From: Laspinema olomoucense D3c
GTDB taxonomy: Bacteria; Cyanobacteriota; Cyanobacteriia; Cyanobacteriales; Laspinemataceae
Assembly (NCBI RefSeq): GCF_025370725.1
Contig: NZ_JAMXEZ010000006.1
DNA: 10,583 nt
Direction: 5' to 3' (one strand)
Position numbers and translations under genes: made by a program. The notes beneath the pieces were generated by a model. That model was not told the DNA's origin. It ran no database searches and saw nothing but the letters and a program-made list of their open reading frames with translations. Position 1 is the first letter of the stretch; each line of letters begins with the position of its first letter. Shown piece after piece: positions 1 through 9,723 of this stretch.

Positions 1-2546
1 AGGGTTCTTACCGAGTCACCATCCCCGGTGAGGGTGCGTTCCTCCTCCCCTGTAGCCAAATTCCAAACTTTCAGGGTGTTATAGTCTGAACCGGAAACCA
101 CCCGTTGCCCATCGCCGCTGATGGCTACGGCATATACCGGCCCACCATGCCCAGTGAGAGTGCGGATTAAGGGACCGCCGGGGGGGGTGAGGTTAGGAAA
201 AAGAGGGCGAATCCAGGGTTTTCTTTGACATTGTTGCGCCTGAGTCAGCAGTTGGGTGATAGCGGGGAACGTCTCCCTTTGAGGAGTCGGCGGATACTTG
301 GGTAAATGCTGACCAATGCCCGGAATCCGCTCCCAGAAATAGCGATAGGCAGGTTTAGGGGGGGTCATCTCCGCAAAAGACAACAACCGCCCCCAGAGTT
401 GCCCCGCCAGTTGGCTGGTATCCTCCTGCACCACATGGGCGGACAACTGTACCGCCTCCCCCACCAGCCCCAGGGCCCGAGTTGCCACGGCCTCTGGAAC
501 TGCCTCAAAATCCGCCAACACCGGCCCCACCCCCAGGCGCTCTATCTTCCCCTGCAACCAGGGAAAATCTAGTAACAGCGTTGGGATGTGGTGTGGGCAA
601 ACTTGGAGATGGTGACGAATGGCGTAGCGAGCAAAATACTCATCCGCCATCGCCTCGTGATAGCCTTGGGGATAGCGTTGACCATAAGCAGCGAAAAACT
701 TCTCCTGACGCGCCGTCAAATCCCCCGCCTGTTGGCGCACATAATCCACCTGCAAATCGTGCAGACTCAGCCGCCCCAACTCATCCCGCAACAGCAACGA
801 CTTCGCCACCAAATCATTCACCACATCCGACACCGCCGAGGCATCCAGCCCGATCGCCCCCCAGAAAATTTCCAGCACCCCCTCGGAAATCGGGGTATCC
901 TCGGGGAAAATCGCCAAATCCAGATACCGAGTCGCCATATCTGACGGCAACGCATCCACACTCACTTGCAGCACTTTCAGCAAATCGGGATGGGGATAAT
1001 TCGGGAACTCGTAGGCAATCCGGGCTAAATCCGCTGCTCTCAATTTTTCCAGCACATTCCGCCAACGGTTTTCCCCGTTCCCACAGACCATTGCCCCGGC
1101 GATCGCCACCGCCAAAGGCAAATAGCCACATTCCTGCACCACCTCCACCGCCTCCGGTGGCAATCCTTCCGGGTGTTCCCCCGCCCACTGCGCCACCAAC
1201 CCTAACCCCTGCTCCTCGGACAACAGCCCCACCTCATGACCTTGGGCCGCCAATCCCGTCACTAACTTCCCATCCCGGGTCGTCAACAACAATTGACACC
1301 GTGGCCCCAACCCATCAAACGCCGCCGCGTGGGACATCTGCCAAACATCATCCAACACCAACAAACAAGCGCGCCCCTCCAACTGTTGCGCCAGTGCCGC
1401 TTTCCCCTGGGGTACATCCTGAAAATAGGGGAGCGTCCCGGTAAAATAGCCCACACAGTCCACCAATCGCGTGAGCAGGTTCGGTTCTTGCCCCAAAGTC
1501 ACCCACAGCACCCCATCGGGAAACCGTTCTCCCACCGCCTCATCCCGCGCCACCGCAGCCGCCAGCACCGACTTCCCAATGCCCCCCATCCCCTGCACCC
1601 CCACCCGCTGCGCCACTCCCGTCATCACCAAAGTTTGGGACTCGGTTCCCAGCAGCTTGGTTTTAATCGCCTCAACTTCTTCTGAGCGGGGCAAAAACTT
1701 CAGAGGCAACGACGGCACATTAAACAACCGGGAACGGGGTGCAGCGGTTGCCCTTCCGTCAATCTTGGCTTCTATGCGCTCTAACTGTCGCGTCTGACGC
1801 CAGAAATTCCGGTCTAAGGTACTCAGCACCCGCTCCACATCTTCCCGGTGCGCCAACTTCGGCAAATACTGCTGAATTTCCTGAATCTGCGCCAAAGTTG
1901 CCCCATGCAAATCCAACACCATCCCGGCAAACGCTTTCGGGTCATCCTTCAACACCTGCCGCAAATACTTGCCAAAATTCGCCGCCAACTCCCCCGCCAA
2001 CGCCGCCACCACCTTCCCATACTTCGCCCTTTCCCCAGGCAAAATCCCCCGCCCAGAGCCCCAATCCACCAAATCCTCACTCAACTCCTGCCACTCGTCC
2101 GCCTTCAAAATCGGGTAGTTGCTGAACCCTTCCGGTGCTTGGCTAAACAAGTGATAAAGCTGGTCCTCCTGCAAGGTTTCAAACACATTGATGCGCTGCA
2201 CCCGCTCCAACCAATAGTCTTCCACCCTATCCGCTAACCCATGCAATCCGGCGCGCAACTTTGGGAACTGGGGGATGATGCGCTCCTCTAAGGTTTTCCC
2301 CACCGTCCGTCCCGCCGCCTTCGCTAAATCCTCATTCCGCAACACTTCCCCATGATTGCGAAATCGATCGAGCAACGCCTCGATCTCAGTTGCCCCCAAG
2401 CTACTGATAATCCCACTCGTCACAGTCCATACCGCTTCTGTCCCAGGACTCCCCGCCTTTGCTAGAGTCCACACAGCCCCCAACCCCAGTAGCGCCGTTT
2501 TACCCAATAGGCTTCGATTTACCTTGAGCCACTGCTTCGCATCCAT
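1..2546 (-). CDS. STAND NTPase of the NB-ARC (APAF-1/CED-4/plant R-protein) type with C-terminal WD40 repeats; bacterial NLR-like protein. The N-terminal domain of about 270 aa is unassigned. The 3' end (WD40 array) runs off the left edge of the window, so at least 848 codons lie in the window.
   Basis: Read on the minus strand from ATG (rc of cat at 2544-2546). An in-frame stop (rc of cta at 2550-2552) lies immediately upstream, and GGAGG lies about 8 nt upstream of the ATG. The frame (plus-strand triplets starting at multiples of 3) was checked codon by codon for 180-600 and 2340-2546 and read by reverse complement in between, and no stop was found. The translation shows P-loop GVQGMGGIGKSVLAAAV (about 1570-1610), kinase-2/Walker B ACLLVLDDVW (about 1335-1365), CQLLLTTRD (about 1270-1295) and a GLPLA-type motif ECGYLPLAVAIAG (about 1095-1130). 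WD40 units PLIRTLTGHGGPVYAVAISGDGQRVVSGSDYNTLKVWNLATGEEERTLTGDGDSVRT occupy 1-175. The gene is missing from the supplied ORF track, presumably because no stop codon falls inside the window. The plus strand here is C-rich and gives only Pro-rich antisense ORFs. Confidence 0.85.
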   Translation of the reverse strand, partial: MDAKQWLKVNRSLLGKTALLGLGAVWTLAKAGSPGTEAVWTVTSGIISSLGATEIEALLDRFRNHGEVLRNEDLAKAAGRTVGKTLEERIIPQFPKLRAGLHGLADRVEDYWLERVQRINVFETLQEDQLYHLFSQAPEGFSNYPILKADEWQELSEDLVDWGSGRGILPGERAKYGKVVAALAGELAANFGKYLRQVLKDDPKAFAGMVLDLHGATLAQIQEIQQYLPKLAHREDVERVLSTLDRNFWRQTRQLERIEAKIDGRATAAPRSRLFNVPSLPLKFLPRSEEVEAIKTKLLGTESQTLVMTGVAQRVGVQGMGGIGKSVLAAAVARDEAVGERFPDGVLWVTLGQEPNLLTRLVDCVGYFTGTLPYFQDVPQGKAALAQQLEGRACLLVLDDVWQMSHAAAFDGLGPRCQLLLTTRDGKLVTGLAAQGHEVGLLSEEQGLGLVAQWAGEHPEGLPPEAVEVVQECGYLPLAVAIAGAMVCGNGENRWRNVLEKLRAADLARIAYEFPNYPHPDLLKVLQVSVDALPSDMATRYLDLAIFPEDTPISEGVLEIFWGAIGLDASAVSDVVNDLVAKSLLLRDELGRLSLHDLQVDYVRQQAGDLTARQEKFFAAYGQRYPQGYHEAMADEYFARYAIRHHLQVCPHHIPTLLLDFPWLQGKIERLGVGPVLADFEAVPEAVATRALGLVGEAVQLSAHVVQEDTSQLAGQLWGRLLSFAEMTPPKPAYRYFWERIPGIGQHLPKYPPTPQRETFPAITQLLTQAQQCQRKPWIRPLFPNLTPPGGPLIRTLTGHGGPVYAVAISGDGQRVVSGSDYNTLKVWNLATGEEERTLTGDGDSVRT
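1099..1106. repeat. HIP1 (highly iterated palindrome 1, GCGATCGC). This is the only full copy in the first 3460 bp of the window.
   Basis: Exact octamer at 1099-1106. 7/8 matches occur at about 851-858 and about 2366-2373. Compare 17 full copies in 3461-10583. Confidence 0.8.
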
Positions 2547-2716
2547 ACCCTATCCCTCCACCACTGCACCTATTTTACTGAAGGTTCATCACCTTGGACA
2601 CGATTTGTCAGCAAAAAGTGGGTACGAACAGCGCTATCCGGATTCATGAATTTCACCGCAACGGACGGGAGCCATTAGAATAGAAACGTGAATCTGACTT
2701 AACCGGAGTGTGTGAC
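2547..2716. promoter_or_regulatory. Divergent intergenic region of 170 bp between the NLR-like gene (-) and the small-protein/protease operon (+). It presumably carries both promoters and both ribosome-binding sites.
   Basis: No ORF in this stretch, and it is AT-richer than its flanks. GGAGG precedes the minus-strand ATG at 2546. GGAG at 2705-2708 lies 8 nt before the plus-strand ATG at 2717. No -10/-35 pair could be called with confidence. Confidence 0.3.
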
Positions 2717-2932
2717 ATGGTGCCATCGGAATTAATCTCAACCTTGAGAGCGCTGAGTCGTTCAGATCAGTTCTATATCATGCAGATTCTGCTCTCAGAA
2801 TTAGCCCAGCAGGAACCTACTCTGATTCAGTCTGAGCAATCTTATCCAGTGTGGTCGCCTTATGGTGCGGATGAGGCAGCAGATACAATGTTAAAAGTGC
2901 TACAGGAGTCTAAATCTCAAGATGATGGGTAA
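2717..2932 (+). CDS. Small (71 aa) acidic, predicted all-helical protein of unknown function. It is the first gene of a two-gene cassette and has an antitoxin/adaptor-like flavour.
   Basis: ATG at 2717 with GGAG 8 nt upstream; the ORF track instead starts at an upstream GTG at 2708. Translation: MVPSELISTLRALSRSDQFYIMQILLSELAQQEPTLIQSEQSYPVWSPYGADEAADTMLKVLQESKSQDDG. The stop TAA at 2930-2932 overlaps the downstream start within ATGATGGGTAA, indicating translational coupling. GC is about 45%, well below the flanking genes. Confidence 0.55.
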   Translation: MVPSELISTLRALSRSDQFYIMQILLSELAQQEPTLIQSEQSYPVWSPYGADEAADTMLKVLQESKSQDDG

Positions 2933-3353
2933 TCCTGAACGATATCCATTTTTATCGGGTAATCCGGCATTAGGTGAAGCTAGTTTTTGTCCGTATCTGC
3001 CTTTGACCTTGTTTTACCAGGAGAGTTCACTCAAAACCTCCGGGCTGTTAGATACTGGGGCAAGTGTAAATGTGCTGCCATATTTGACAGGCATTGAGCT
3101 GGGATACGAATGGGAGAGACAAACAACTGCTCTGAGCCTGACTGGTAATTTAGCTCAGTATGAGGCGCGTGTTGTACTTGCTCAAGGGATCATTGGTCAG
3201 TTTGAGCCTGTGCAACTGGTATTTGCCTGGACACAAGCTACAAACGTACCGCTCATTCTGGGGCAGGTAAACTTTTTTATGGAGTTCGATGTCTGTTTCT
3301 ATCGTTCCCAGTTAGAGTTTGCAGTCAGCCCTAAAACTCCTTCCTCCGAGTAG
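2922..3353 (+). CDS. Retropepsin-like (clan AA) aspartic protease, single domain, 143 aa.
   Basis: Catalytic-site signature hydrophobic-hydrophobic-D-T-G-A-S in SGLLDTGASVNVLPY. A second conserved retropepsin motif (hh-G-x-x-hh, as in IIGRNLL) appears in PLILGQVNFFMEF. The size fits a dimeric retropepsin fold. The start overlaps the stop of the upstream small ORF. The gene is low-GC with AT-rich third codon positions. Confidence 0.75.
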   Translation: MMGNPERYPFLSGNPALGEASFCPYLPLTLFYQESSLKTSGLLDTGASVNVLPYLTGIELGYEWERQTTALSLTGNLAQYEARVVLAQGIIGQFEPVQLVFAWTQATNVPLILGQVNFFMEFDVCFYRSQLEFAVSPKTPSSE

Positions 3354-3460
3354 GTTGAATGTTAGGTTGTTTAATCGTTGCCATAATCTTTGCCGGAACG
3401 ATTCGATCTATTCGCTGATATCATGGGTAAATTATGTTCTGACCTTCTGAGCAAGCAACC

Positions 3461-6260: not shown

Positions 6261-6791
6261 TTAGTCTGGTAATTGTTGTTTCAAGGAAGAAATAATCTCA
6301 GCATCTAGTTTGAGTTTTACCTCGATTAAGCGGGTGTTATCTCGTAAAATTAAGGTGTGATTGTCTTCTACAAAAATTTCTGGTTCTTGCAAAGTCAAGG
6401 TTTGATATTTCAAGGCAGCGAGTCCGATCTGCATGACGAGGGTGGGTTGGGATTGGGGATAAATGTAGAGTTGCTGCCGTTTGGGGTCGAGTTGCAGTTG
6501 TCTGACGGTGGTATTGCGTTCGTCTGGCATTCCGGGTTTTGTCCAATAGAGGGTAATGCCGCGTATATCGGGGTTGGCGATCGCAAAGGTTTCGTCAAAG
6601 CGTTGGGGTTCCCAATCCAATTCTCGAACATCGCCGTTTCCCGGAAGGATACGCTGGCGCAAGATGATCTCTTTGCCGTTGAGGTTGCGCCACCATTGCC
6701 GGATTGTCTCGAAATTTTCAACCATCTCGGGATTGCTATTCCCAGAGTGCCAGGTGATGAATTGCACGATCGCCCTCCTAATTGCTATCAA
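6261..6791 (-). CDS. Hypothetical protein, 176 aa, with no motif I can recognise.
   Basis: The ORF has balanced, protein-like composition (MIAIRRAIVQFITWHSGNSNPEMVENFETIRQWW...). It is on the same strand as the GST and 20 bp upstream of it. The overlapping plus-strand ORF 6357..6794 is less protein-like. The alternative start M23 (MVENFE...) cannot be excluded. Confidence 0.55.
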   Translation of the reverse strand: MIAIRRAIVQFITWHSGNSNPEMVENFETIRQWWRNLNGKEIILRQRILPGNGDVRELDWEPQRFDETFAIANPDIRGITLYWTKPGMPDERNTTVRQLQLDPKRQQLYIYPQSQPTLVMQIGLAALKYQTLTLQEPEIFVEDNHTLILRDNTRLIEVKLKLDAEIISSLKQQLPD

Positions 6792-7864: not shown

Positions 7865-9433
7865 CTACTCCCGTTCCAAAATTCTGACCATTCCTTTGGC
7901 ACTGCCACTGATGAGAAGTTGTCCATTTGGACTGTAAACTAAGGACATCACGGCCCCACTTTCTTCCGTTAACGTGCAGAGTAATTTACCTGTGGGTAAA
8001 TGCCAGATTTTGACCGTCCCATCGGCGCTGCCTGTGGCAAAGCTGTTCCCATCTGGGGCGAGGGCGACTGCGGTTACGGGTCCTAAATGGGCACTCAGAC
8101 TCCACAGCAGTTCACCCGTTTCCAAATTCCAGAGTTGAATACTGCCGTCGCCACTGCCGCCGATGAGGAGTTGTTGGGGAGAGATGACGATCGCTTCTAC
8201 CGCCTCTAAACTGCCATTGAGGATCGAAATCGGCTGTTTGGTTTGGAACTGCCACAGGGTAATCGTACCGTCCCCACCGCCTCGGGCGAGAATTTGACCA
8301 TCGGGGGAAATAGCGAGGGAAAAGATGGGTCCGGTATAGTCCGTGAGGGTATCAATTAATTCAGCAGTGGACAAATCCCACAATTTAATCGTCTCGTCAA
8401 AACTGCCACTGACGAGGGTTTTGCCATCAGGGGCGATCGCCAAGGCGCGGACGGAACCCCCATGTCCCGTGAGGGTTTCTTTGGGAATTCCTGTGGGGAG
8501 TTCCCAGAGTTTGATGGTTTTATCCCAACTGGCAGAGGCGAGGGTTTTACCATCAGGGGCGATCGCAATGGCAAATACCCCCCGTTTGTGTTCGGCAAGG
8601 ACTTGCAACAGTTCGCCCGTAGTCAGGTTCCACAGTTTAATACTGGTATCAAAACTGCCCGTTGCTAGAATTTGTCCATCAGGGGTAATCCCCAGCGATC
8701 GCACCCAGTCCGCATGGGCGGGCAAACTGTGGCGACAGATCCAATTCTGGGCCGTGGGTTCTGAGGGGGCCGCAAATGACGGCAGGACGACTTTCGACGC
8801 AGGCGGTTTGGATTTGGCGGGTTGAGAAGGGGTTGCGGATGTGGGGGGTTCCGGCATTGCCAGTTCCGGTTGAGGGCGAGGAGAGGGCGACGGGACCACG
8901 ATTTGCGAGGTTAATTGGGAAATTGCCTCCTCCACTCGTTCTAAGCGGTAGGCAAAGGATGAACGATTCAGATAGGCGATCGCATTGCCCAGACTTTCAT
9001 CCAACAAGGCATATTGCTCTTTCAACCCCGCGATTTCCCCCTGAATCTGGGACAAATCCACCGATTCTAATTTCCCCAATCGGGTTTTAAGCAGAGCCAA
9101 TTCATCCGGGGACCCCGTAGCCACAGGGGGGCGGCTGCCTTCCTCTACTTCCACTTGAGGGAGGGGAAGTTGCTTCTGGGCTTCCACCCGTTGGGTGAGC
9201 ATTTCCAGTTCTTCCGCCAATTGGCGATGCTGTCGATTCGTTGTTCCACTGACTCGGCGAGTTTGGTGTTCCAGGCGATACCGGGCGATCGCATTCAAAA
9301 TCAGGGTACTGCAAATCAAAGGGGCGGCTACATAGATAGCCCCATTAAAAAAAACCGCCACTATCGACGCCACCAATGACGCGAACAAGGAAGCATATTC
9401 TGCGGTTTCTAGCCAATGACGGTGATTTGACAT
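7865..9433 (-). CDS. Membrane-anchored WD40 repeat protein: two N-terminal TM helices, a coiled-coil segment, a Pro-rich linker, then a 7-bladed WD40 propeller.
   Basis: I place the start at the ATG at 9431-9433 (MSNHRHW...), with GGAAGGA 5-9 nt upstream. The ORF track instead uses an upstream GTG at 9451. Hydrophobic segments YASLFASLVASIVAVFF and AIYVAAPLICSTLILNAIA are present. Heptad-like stretches are LAEELEMLTQRVEAQKQ and LSQIQGEIAGLKEQYALLDESL. The linker PSPSPRPQPELAMPEPPTSATPSQPAKSKPPASK follows. Seven WD40 units carry GH...(A/S)IAPDG...(L/I)A(S/T)GS...D.(T/S)IKLW signatures. Confidence 0.85.
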   Translation of the reverse strand: MSNHRHWLETAEYASLFASLVASIVAVFFNGAIYVAAPLICSTLILNAIARYRLEHQTRRVSGTTNRQHRQLAEELEMLTQRVEAQKQLPLPQVEVEEGSRPPVATGSPDELALLKTRLGKLESVDLSQIQGEIAGLKEQYALLDESLGNAIAYLNRSSFAYRLERVEEAISQLTSQIVVPSPSPRPQPELAMPEPPTSATPSQPAKSKPPASKVVLPSFAAPSEPTAQNWICRHSLPAHADWVRSLGITPDGQILATGSFDTSIKLWNLTTGELLQVLAEHKRGVFAIAIAPDGKTLASASWDKTIKLWELPTGIPKETLTGHGGSVRALAIAPDGKTLVSGSFDETIKLWDLSTAELIDTLTDYTGPIFSLAISPDGQILARGGGDGTITLWQFQTKQPISILNGSLEAVEAIVISPQQLLIGGSGDGSIQLWNLETGELLWSLSAHLGPVTAVALAPDGNSFATGSADGTVKIWHLPTGKLLCTLTEESGAVMSLVYSPNGQLLISGSAKGMVRILERE

Positions 9434-9723
9434 AGAGTCCTTCCCACCCACCGGAGCCTATATTACAAGTGCCATTTTATCAAAAATCCCCCTAATCTTT
9501 CCATTTTATGGAGAAATGTTGATATAAGGGGGATACAAATTTTTCACTCAAACCCGGCACAATTGAGCCTAAATTGCCCAAAATTTTGTTTTGAGACTAA
9601 TAATGATTCCTCTAGTTTCAACCCTGAGCGTTCGAGCCTTAAAAATAGGGTAAACAATGAACAAAGAGTTTAATCAATCATTTTTTTGTTTTGCCCCTCG
9701 TTATTGACTCAAGCGGCTGTTAT

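Follow-up and report, generated by a model that had tools for sequence, protein, structure and literature searches.

We analyzed a 10,583-nucleotide stretch of the genome of Laspinema olomoucense D3c (contig NZ_JAMXEZ010000006.1; hereafter, the window), the left end of which carries, on the minus strand, the 5′ part of a gene for an Apaf-1-like STAND NTPase, i.e., a bacterial NLR, of an Oscillatoriaceae/Laspinema-type filamentous cyanobacterium, as judged from the gene order shared with related genomes. The scaffold of this protein is of an already known kind, the cyanobacterial Apaf-1-like NLR. Its first 264 residues (the N-domain), as profile searches show, belong to a previously unannotated family that is portable between proteins, restricted to their N-termini, and so far found in cyanobacteria only. 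In our view, the best explanation for this architecture, to which we assign a probability of roughly 40%, is that the NLR would drive the exposure and membrane insertion of hydrophobic hairpins in the N-domain, thereby killing or arresting the cell.

Reverse-complement translation of positions 3..2546 yielded 848 codons in a single frame, stop-free and still open at the left window end. An earlier sequence-only reading of this DNA had claimed a minus-strand open reading frame (ORF) of at least 848 codons here, and the accurate retranslation, with no stop, bears it out. The frame was missing from the ORF list because that list omits ORFs running off the window end; the ORFs listed over the left 2.5 kb are antisense and overlapping ones. 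The GC skew is strongly negative over positions 500-2500, which fits one long minus-strand gene. Across six orthologues, the ratio of amino acid-changing to silent substitution rates (dN/dS) was ~0.15-0.7, so that moderate purifying selection acts on most of the gene, which shows it to be functional as opposed to a chance ORF. The 848-residue part covers only ~1.3 WD40 repeats inside the window, and orthologues from Laspinema and other Oscillatoriaceae, 87-92% identical, are 1388-1390 amino acids (aa) long. Over the full 848 residues, P0161, a Laspinema protein of 1390 aa, has 87% identity, and its sequence runs on into a long WD40 array; the orthologue at locus L005, from an Oscillatoriaceae metagenome-assembled genome (MAG), is a 1388-aa ORF of 92.8% nucleotide identity, where the 3′ third of the gene consists of 13 tandem 126-nt WD40 units with 81% matches. 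From these orthologue lengths, we infer that the WD40 array of the window gene extends beyond the window end. Such internally near-identical repeats have been described for the sensors of fungal and bacterial NLRs (10.1101/2020.01.06.895854). The gene and its scaffold comprise the following features:

3..2546, minus strand: 5′ part (848 codons) of the NB-ARC/WD40 STAND NTPase gene, continuing past the left window end (translation, Pfam, orthologues of 1388-1390 aa)
2547..2575, minus strand: translation start region, with a GGAGGG Shine-Dalgarno sequence ~8 nt before the ATG at 2546 and an in-frame TAG two codons upstream
1638..1754, minus strand: linker from the N-domain to NB-ARC, aa 265-303 (between domain borders)
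954..1637, minus strand: NB-ARC NTPase module, aa 304-531 (Pfam E = 4.8e-28; 98.5 bits versus a cutoff of 23.5)
1569-1592, minus strand: P-loop GMGGIGKS, aa 319-326 (motif located)
1341-1364, minus strand: Walker B LLVLDDVW, aa 395-402 (motif located)
1272-1283, minus strand: TTRD (RNBS-B, TTR), aa 422-425 (motif located)
1104-1124, minus strand: GLPL-like YLPLAVA, aa 475-481 (motif located)
741..941, minus strand: APAF-1-like winged-helix domain, aa 536-602 (Pfam E = 4e-8)
756-767, minus strand: MHD-like SLHD, aa 594-597 (motif located)
426..704, minus strand: helical domain 2, aa 615-707 (weak Pfam APAF1_C match, E = 0.052; inside the phmmer alignment to Apaf-1)
174..425, minus strand: Pro-rich linker (17% Pro) before the propeller, aa 708-791 (composition)
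3..173, minus strand: first WD40 repeat and beginning of the second, aa 792-848 (Pfam WD40 at aa 792-829, E = 6e-9)

The order of parts shown by these matches together with the orthologues is thus an N-terminal output domain, NB-ARC, winged helix, helical domain 2, Pro-rich linker, and a near-identical WD40 array. Pfam matched both NB-ARC and WD40, as the sequence-only reading had anticipated, and the four motifs that it had quoted (GMGGIGKS, LLVLDDVW, TTRD, and YLPLAVA) were all located. A phmmer search of the PDB sequences identified Apaf-1 as the closest solved relative (E = 2.8e-40), aligned to Apaf-1 residues 119-526, which span the nucleotide-binding domain (NBD), helical domain 1 (HD1), winged-helix domain (WHD), and helical domain 2 (HD2); plant NLRs followed at 1e-20 and weaker, and the Pfam match to NACHT reached merely E = 0.12. 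Both the NTPase motifs and the MHD-type winged helix place the protein in the NB-ARC (AP-ATPase) clade of STAND NTPases, and the NB-ARC/WD40 STAND call made earlier can accordingly be narrowed to the Apaf-1 type by Pfam and the PDB sequence search. The Apaf-1-like architecture is likewise present, with one WD40 repeat inside the window and the remaining propeller seen in orthologues: Apaf-1 and the cyanobacterial Apaf-1-like STANDs share the NTPase module and the order NBD-HD1-WHD-HD2 followed by WD40 propellers, and the closest Apaf-1 homologues are indeed cyanobacterial (PMC13581612). Unlike Apaf-1, the window protein carries a 264-aa helical domain with a hydrophobic hairpin at the position where the CARD/caspase-like N-terminus sits (Pfam gave no CARD, Death-like, or peptidase match in aa 1-303), and the WD40 repeats of the cyanobacterial NLR are near-identical tandem copies.

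The N-domain itself is composed as follows:

1755..2546, minus strand: N-terminal domain, aa 1-264, all-alpha with 11 predicted helices, an unannotated family (profile searches, AlphaFold model)
2367..2510, minus strand: Gly/Ala/Ser/Thr-rich hydrophobic helical hairpin, aa 13-60 (hydropathy, composition, alignment)
2367-2480, minus strand: hypervariable mosaic cassette in the hairpin, aa 22-60 (orthologue comparison)
2298..2345, minus strand: family motif 1, VLRNEDLAKAAGRTVG, aa 68-83, consensus L-x-N-x-D-L-x-K-A-V-G-x-A-I (family alignment)
1902..1976, minus strand: family motif 2, FGKYLRQVLKDDPKAFAGMVLDLHG, aa 191-215, consensus F-P-x-A-L-R-E-V-L-K-x-D-x3-G-K-A-F-A-G (family alignment)
aa 234-263: coiled-coil-like last helix of the N-domain (AlphaFold model)

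Residues 1-~280 returned zero matches at E ≤ 1 in Pfam (2025), PADLOC, and NCBIfam (2026), and 40 diverse N-domains scanned one by one had no common Pfam family. A 40-member N-domain profile found nothing among the PDB sequences beyond coiled-coil noise on the last helix, the AlphaFold model resembled no enzyme family or known pore-former in the PDB fold libraries, and the signature strings of the domain were absent from 8 million full-text papers. The model used was built on a deep alignment (mean confidence, pLDDT, of 76.8), and a shallow-alignment model (pLDDT 57) was set aside. As far as Pfam, NCBIfam, PADLOC, PDB, and the searchable literature go, the N-domain family is undescribed. The earlier statement that this region is not a TIR, caspase/CHAT, nuclease, or PNP domain thus agrees with all four databases, and the structure prediction and fold search proposed at that time for residues 1-270 also led to no known family in the PDB libraries.

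The family was revealed by an exhaustive hidden Markov model (HMM) search with a six-sequence profile against 1.84 billion representatives, which returned 182 proteins at E ≤ 1e-3 and 97 at E ≤ 1e-10. A word-indexed search, with the single domain or with a 40-sequence profile, gave just 5-6 close fragments, and our genome scan with a tight N-domain alignment reaches close relatives only. In 148 of the 153 proteins retrieved, the match starts no more than 20 residues from the N-terminus and covers ~240-280 residues. The window protein scored 219.5 bits (E = 6.6e-66) against the 40-member family profile, its own domain being among the 40 rows, and independent relatives scored E = 1e-60 to 1e-81. 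All members with an organism name are cyanobacterial, mostly filamentous Oscillatoriales plus Nostoc (carriers include Laspinema, Phormidium, Geitlerinema, Arthrospira/Limnospira, Spirulina, Oscillatoria, Kamptonema, and Roseofilum), and their source annotations cover the C-terminal parts only. One 188-aa fragment (P0001, 97% identical) is labeled as a Vampirovibrionales MAG; the other relatives are Oscillatoriales, and the label is probably a binning error.

Conservation within the family is dominated by W112, W152, L187, and F191, which are invariant or near-invariant, next to a few conserved polar residues (N71, D73, R196, E197, K200, and D202), and the family alignment contains no conserved His, Cys, or Ser. 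Because the conserved polar residues are few and none of them is His, Cys, or Ser, the N-domain looks unlike a hydrolase or transferase site. These data bear on the notion of a soluble enzymatic or small-molecule signaling domain with its site in residues 61-215, similar to the N-terminal TIR or PNPase domains of STAND proteins and of vWA-MoxR-associated proteins (VMAPs). Such a domain would suit the slot, which is shared with the nucleotide-utilizing signaling domains of VMAPs, and might use the few polar residues. However, the domain is all-alpha, matches no enzyme family by sequence or structure, and has a family-wide hydrophobic hairpin that an enzyme would leave unexplained, which makes this option quite improbable.

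We quantified the hairpin by the 19-residue Kyte-Doolittle mean (KD19), where values ≥1.6 were taken as transmembrane (TM)-grade. As many as 97 of the 114 full-length N-domains had a segment of KD19 ≥ 1.6 within their first 95 residues, and it occurred later in 1 of 114; the median KD19 maximum of the N-domain relatives was 1.78. Residues 11-60 of these 114 domains contained 13.6% Gly, 18% Ala, and 15% Ser + Thr. Among close orthologues, residues 22-60 fall into two allelic classes, between which the nucleotide identity is ~0.5 inside the cassette and 0.9-1.0 in the flanks, while the silent substitution rate (dS) is 0.8-1.0 inside versus ~0.1 elsewhere. Since the identity falls and dS rises inside while the flanks stay alike, the cassette appears to have recombined rather than merely to be under relaxed selection. 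Within one class, the window and the L006 orthologue differ by 20 amino acid-changing codons and 1 silent codon over the 39 cassette codons, compared to 64 amino acid-changing and 58 silent changes in the rest of the gene (Fisher p = 1.7e-4 for the cassette contrast); the other within-class pairs, a small sample, show no significant cassette excess. Taken together, the alignments indicate a mosaic hairpin cassette that evolves fast among close orthologues. Such a signature is unusual in a membrane segment and may point to an arms race over the effector part of a bacterial NLR.

The N-domain is joined to a wide range of partners. Among 104 long members, Pfam identified NB-ARC in 46 and NACHT in 26, and further members have nSTAND1, AAA_35, or AAA_16/22 domains together with TPR or WD40 repeats; individual scans added VMAP-M1/VMAP-C (two clusters), CHASE2, Pkinase, and TPR-only or unannotated bodies behind the N-domain. 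In total, the domain heads at least seven different scaffolds, in the N-terminal effector/signaling slot. An apparent loss of the P-loop in a third of the members, obtained with a Walker-A regular expression, was rejected, as Pfam shows VMAP, CHASE2, and kinase architectures or variant P-loops in these proteins. On the Limnospira indica chromosome (locus L032, 10001-19372), an intact 716-aa VMAP that starts with the N-domain stands at the head of a complete ternary operon, followed by a gene for a MoxR-type AAA+ ATPase and one for a 2054-aa TPR/CHAT protein. In public annotation, this VMAP has no name for its N-terminal part. In a second example of an N-domain VMAP, an AAA+ gene follows as well. 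Judged by sequence, these operons are vWA-MoxR ternary conflict systems as described by Kaur et al. 2020 (PMC7159879), in which the VMAP N-terminus carries peptidases, nucleotide-utilizing signaling domains, or effector-associated domain (EAD) adaptors. More generally, the N-terminal slot of STAND and VMAP proteins holds effector or signaling domains (PMC7159879; 10.1101/2022.07.19.500537). As the N-domain heads several conflict-system scaffolds, it can be regarded as a shuffled N-terminal module at the effector/signaling output position.

The same placement raises the option of an EAD-type homotypic adaptor that follows a Death-domain logic. Like the EADs and other VMAP N-terminal modules (PMC7159879), the N-domain stands first in VMAP, STAND, and AAA_35 proteins of cyanobacterial conflict systems, has a nonenzymatic look, and is all-alpha, as are most EADs. 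EADs are small and are recognized by a second copy fused to an enzyme on an adjacent gene (PMC7159879). By contrast, when the window and 30 related loci were scanned in six frames with the HMM, each locus had one N-domain copy, besides a 75-residue remnant in L015, and the 22-kb Limnospira VMAP locus contained a single copy even with the HMMER filters off (E ≤ 1). Furthermore, the N-domain is not small (~260 aa), carries a hydrophobic hairpin unlike EADs, and is unmatched by Pfam EAD1-11, apart from an EAD11 match in 1 of 40 members at chance level (E = 0.058). Because of the single copy in each of the loci scanned and the ~260-residue size, we consider an EAD very improbable. The "candidate novel effector" of the sequence-only reading gains support from the N-terminal slot on at least seven scaffolds and from this lack of an adaptor-like second copy.

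In the mechanism that we favor, the WD40 propellers would bind a trigger, which may be an invader protein or a danger signal, upon which the NB-ARC module would exchange nucleotide and oligomerize into a ring, like Apaf-1 and the plant resistosomes. Ring assembly would cluster the N-terminal domains. At rest, the conserved ~200-residue helical core would hold the Gly/Ala-rich hydrophobic hairpin, whereas clustering would expose the hairpins and let them insert into the cytoplasmic or thylakoid membrane, such that membrane integrity collapses. The affected cell of the filament would then die or arrest, amounting to abortive infection or programmed cell death. Pfam revealed no second output domain in the window protein. 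We infer that the proposed logic would equal that of the coiled-coil (CC), HeLo, MLKL, Bell, and 2TM effectors, to which the N-domain is unrelated in sequence and predicted fold.

The likeness to known effectors extends to several classes. The N-domain shares with SLATT/2TM effectors the two N-terminal hydrophobic helices that precede a helical region. SLATT/2TM effectors, which Burroughs et al. reportedly described in 2015, are said to have two N-terminal hydrophobic helices and then a cytoplasmic helical region, and those of CBASS/Pycsar-like systems are reportedly predicted to act as membrane-disrupting killers once oligomerized by an upstream sensor. Unlike these, the N-domain is covalently fused to its sensor NTPase, without a nucleotide signal for activation, and none of the Pfam SLATT models matched N-domains at E ≤ 1. 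With Avs and bNACHT proteins, the window protein shares the tripartite organization of effector, STAND NTPase, and repeat sensor, but its NTPase is NB-ARC, not NACHT. Also similar in layout are the Bell, HeLo, Hell, MLKL four-helix-bundle (4HB), and plant CC domains, which are likewise N-terminal all-alpha modules with a hydrophobic N-terminal helix, located on or next to NLRs of multicellular bacteria; Bell-type domains also share an acidic residue at position 2. For Bell/HeLo-type domains, release on oligomerization has been proposed, and Bell domains are ~100-aa five-helix bundles with the hydrophobic helix 1 starting from the N-terminus, often paired with amyloid motifs (10.1101/2020.01.06.895854; 10.1101/2024.11.07.622273). 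Defining the class by ~80-140 aa and a bundle of four to five helices around a hydrophobic helix 1 that starts at the N-terminus (MEPIS-type motif), we rejected membership of the Bell/HeLo class for the N-domain, which has 264 aa, 11 helices, and a hydrophobic hairpin from ~residue 13, and we keep the class as a functional analogy. No sequence or structural similarity of the N-domain to HeLo, Hell, MLKL, CC, or Bab was found.

Several observations weigh against the favored mechanism. The hairpin of the window copy lies at the weak end of the family, with a KD19 maximum of 1.21, so that the hydrophobic N-terminal start pointed out in the sequence-only reading holds as a family-wide trait, and as a segment present here, but is weak in this copy. 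Its 13-residue hydrophobic core is bracketed by Lys16 and Lys30, and the flank charges of the hairpin (+0.78 before, −0.75 after) give no clear positive-inside signal. Because the uncharged stretches span only 13-15 residues, membrane insertion by this copy is plausible but unproven. The AlphaFold confidence is low for residues 1-69 (pLDDT 46-60), and, as noted, the model resembles no known pore-former in the fold libraries. No PADLOC model of Avs, bNACHT, or another anti-phage STAND matched the window protein (PDC-M02A at chance level, E = 0.048), the full-length orthologue matched PADLOC only at HEAT-ARM_XIII, via its WD40 repeats, and the amine-oxidase, GST, and HDAC-like neighbors of the gene are syntenic in at least six related genomes and mostly housekeeping. 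Last, the killer of VMAP systems is usually on the vWA component, so the N-domain there could be the signaling or localizing part, and its fusion to kinase and CHASE2 equally fits a role in membrane localization.

The latter points feed the alternative that the N-domain is a membrane tether or localization module, with its hairpin constitutively anchoring the scaffold (STAND, VMAP, kinase, or CHASE2 protein), its core serving juxtamembrane signaling or docking, and any killing done by a separate protein. The kinase and CHASE2 fusions are signaling proteins without need of a death effector, the CHAT/TPR giant is an obvious effector in the Limnospira VMAP operon, most homologues reach TM-grade hydrophobicity, and many such systems act at the membrane (Kaur et al., PMC7159879). 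For the window protein, however, we found neither a further output domain nor a gene for a partner effector in the vicinity, its hairpin lacks the length and the hydrophobicity of an ordinary constitutive TM hairpin, the C-terminal hairpin flank bears no positive-inside signature, and a conserved core of 200 residues far exceeds the needs of an anchor. Moreover, anchored hairpins that cluster upon oligomerization would in practice merge with the pore model. We consider a tether the main alternative, though rather unlikely.

A bolder version of hairpin-driven killing is that the N-domain constitutes a new, filamentous-cyanobacterial class of NLR-coupled, membrane-permeabilizing death domain, convergent with CC/HeLo/MLKL/Bell domains and of unrelated fold, whose hairpin would be swappable and positively selected, diversifying against phage-encoded inhibitors or for self/non-self recognition between filaments. 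We put this forward tentatively and regard it as rather unlikely. If the proposed hairpin mechanism holds, the N-domain would represent an independent solution to the "oligomerize, then puncture the membrane" strategy, in the form of a portable module common to NB-ARC, NACHT, nSTAND1, AAA_35, and VMAP-MoxR systems that is currently annotated in no database, and it would provide a name and a testable function for the N-termini of ~180 protein clusters, including those of the industrially grown Limnospira/Arthrospira. NLR-like STANDs with N-terminal death effectors form a link among the immune systems of bacteria, plants, fungi, and animals, and the proteins most closely related to Apaf-1 are those of cyanobacteria.

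The gene family also shows decay and splitting in relatives. Decayed copies (L001-L003, L004/L020, and L010) include the same two frameshifts in three independent assemblies (L001-L003) and, in Spirulina, a broken family copy beside an IS605 OrfB gene; a Phormidium pseudopriestleyi member has in-frame stops. Apparently truncated alleles in L025 and L029 were discarded, as the long homopolymer runs after the first ~97 codons in L029 (8280-11730), and likewise in L025, are an assembly artifact over the repeat-rich gene. In two genomes, the gene is present as two ORFs with a 4-nt overlap, the first of 647 aa (N-domain and NB-ARC) and the second of 735-788 aa (WD40), while others have the fused gene:

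L015 8001-12148 and L017 8001-12307: split NLR homologue, two ORFs, in Spirulina subsalsa and an Oscillatoriaceae MAG

This arrangement suggests that the same NLR also exists as two proteins whose translation is coupled. A conflict role of the window gene would fit the frequent pseudogenes and split forms, the fast-evolving hairpin, and an adjoining PADLOC candidate system, which is a two-gene cassette that lies divergently, 170 nt upstream of the NLR start:

2717-2932, plus strand: 71-aa ORF (PADLOC candidate PDC-M52A, E = 3.5e-6)
2922-3353, plus strand: 143-aa retropepsin-like (Asp_protease_2) ORF, overlapping the 71-aa ORF (PDC-M52B over its full length, E = 4.9e-50)

A literature search found no paper naming PDC-M52. 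The slot between the NLR and the amine-oxidase gene (2547-3460 in the window; 5616-7898 in L005) differs among orthologous loci: PDC-M52A/B occupies it in the window, L025, L026, and L029, whereas L005 has a 576-aa eCIS_core (DUF4157) protein in their place, and the slot is shorter in L006 and L008. Given the PDC-M52A/B candidate pair and slot contents that vary inside conserved synteny, the neighborhood may be a small variable defense-related spot, though no classic defense island.

A regulatory or developmental STAND switch, with a MalT/AfsR-like logic and an N-domain output unrelated to immunity or death, also has arguments in its favor: the synteny with housekeeping genes is stable in several species, PADLOC calls no system, and the NCBIfam matches of the protein, all partial and via the shared NB-ARC only, are best to regulators and RiPP-associated TPR proteins. 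On the other hand, Pfam finds no DNA-binding or other regulatory output domain, the N-domain also heads the VMAP ternary conflict systems, and the gene shows features typical of conflict genes (near-identical, rapidly diversifying WD40 repeats, pseudogenes, split forms, and a hypervariable cassette). A regulatory switch is therefore unlikely in our estimate.

The remaining neighbors in the window are an FAD amine oxidase, a GST, an HDAC-like deacetylase, MgtE, and a membrane-anchored WD40 protein of 528 aa; the latter and one further ORF are located as follows:

6261-6791, minus strand: 176-aa ORF flanked by the GST and HDAC-like genes (unmatched in Pfam and PADLOC)
7865-9451, minus strand: 528-aa WD40 protein with hydrophobic segments at its N-terminus (YASLFASLVASIVAVFFNGAIYVAAPLICSTLILNAI), a coiled coil, a Pro-rich linker, and a WD40 propeller of seven blades; no NTPase domain

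The WD40 part of the 528-aa protein matches PADLOC HEAT-ARM_XIII, as do the repeats of the NLR.

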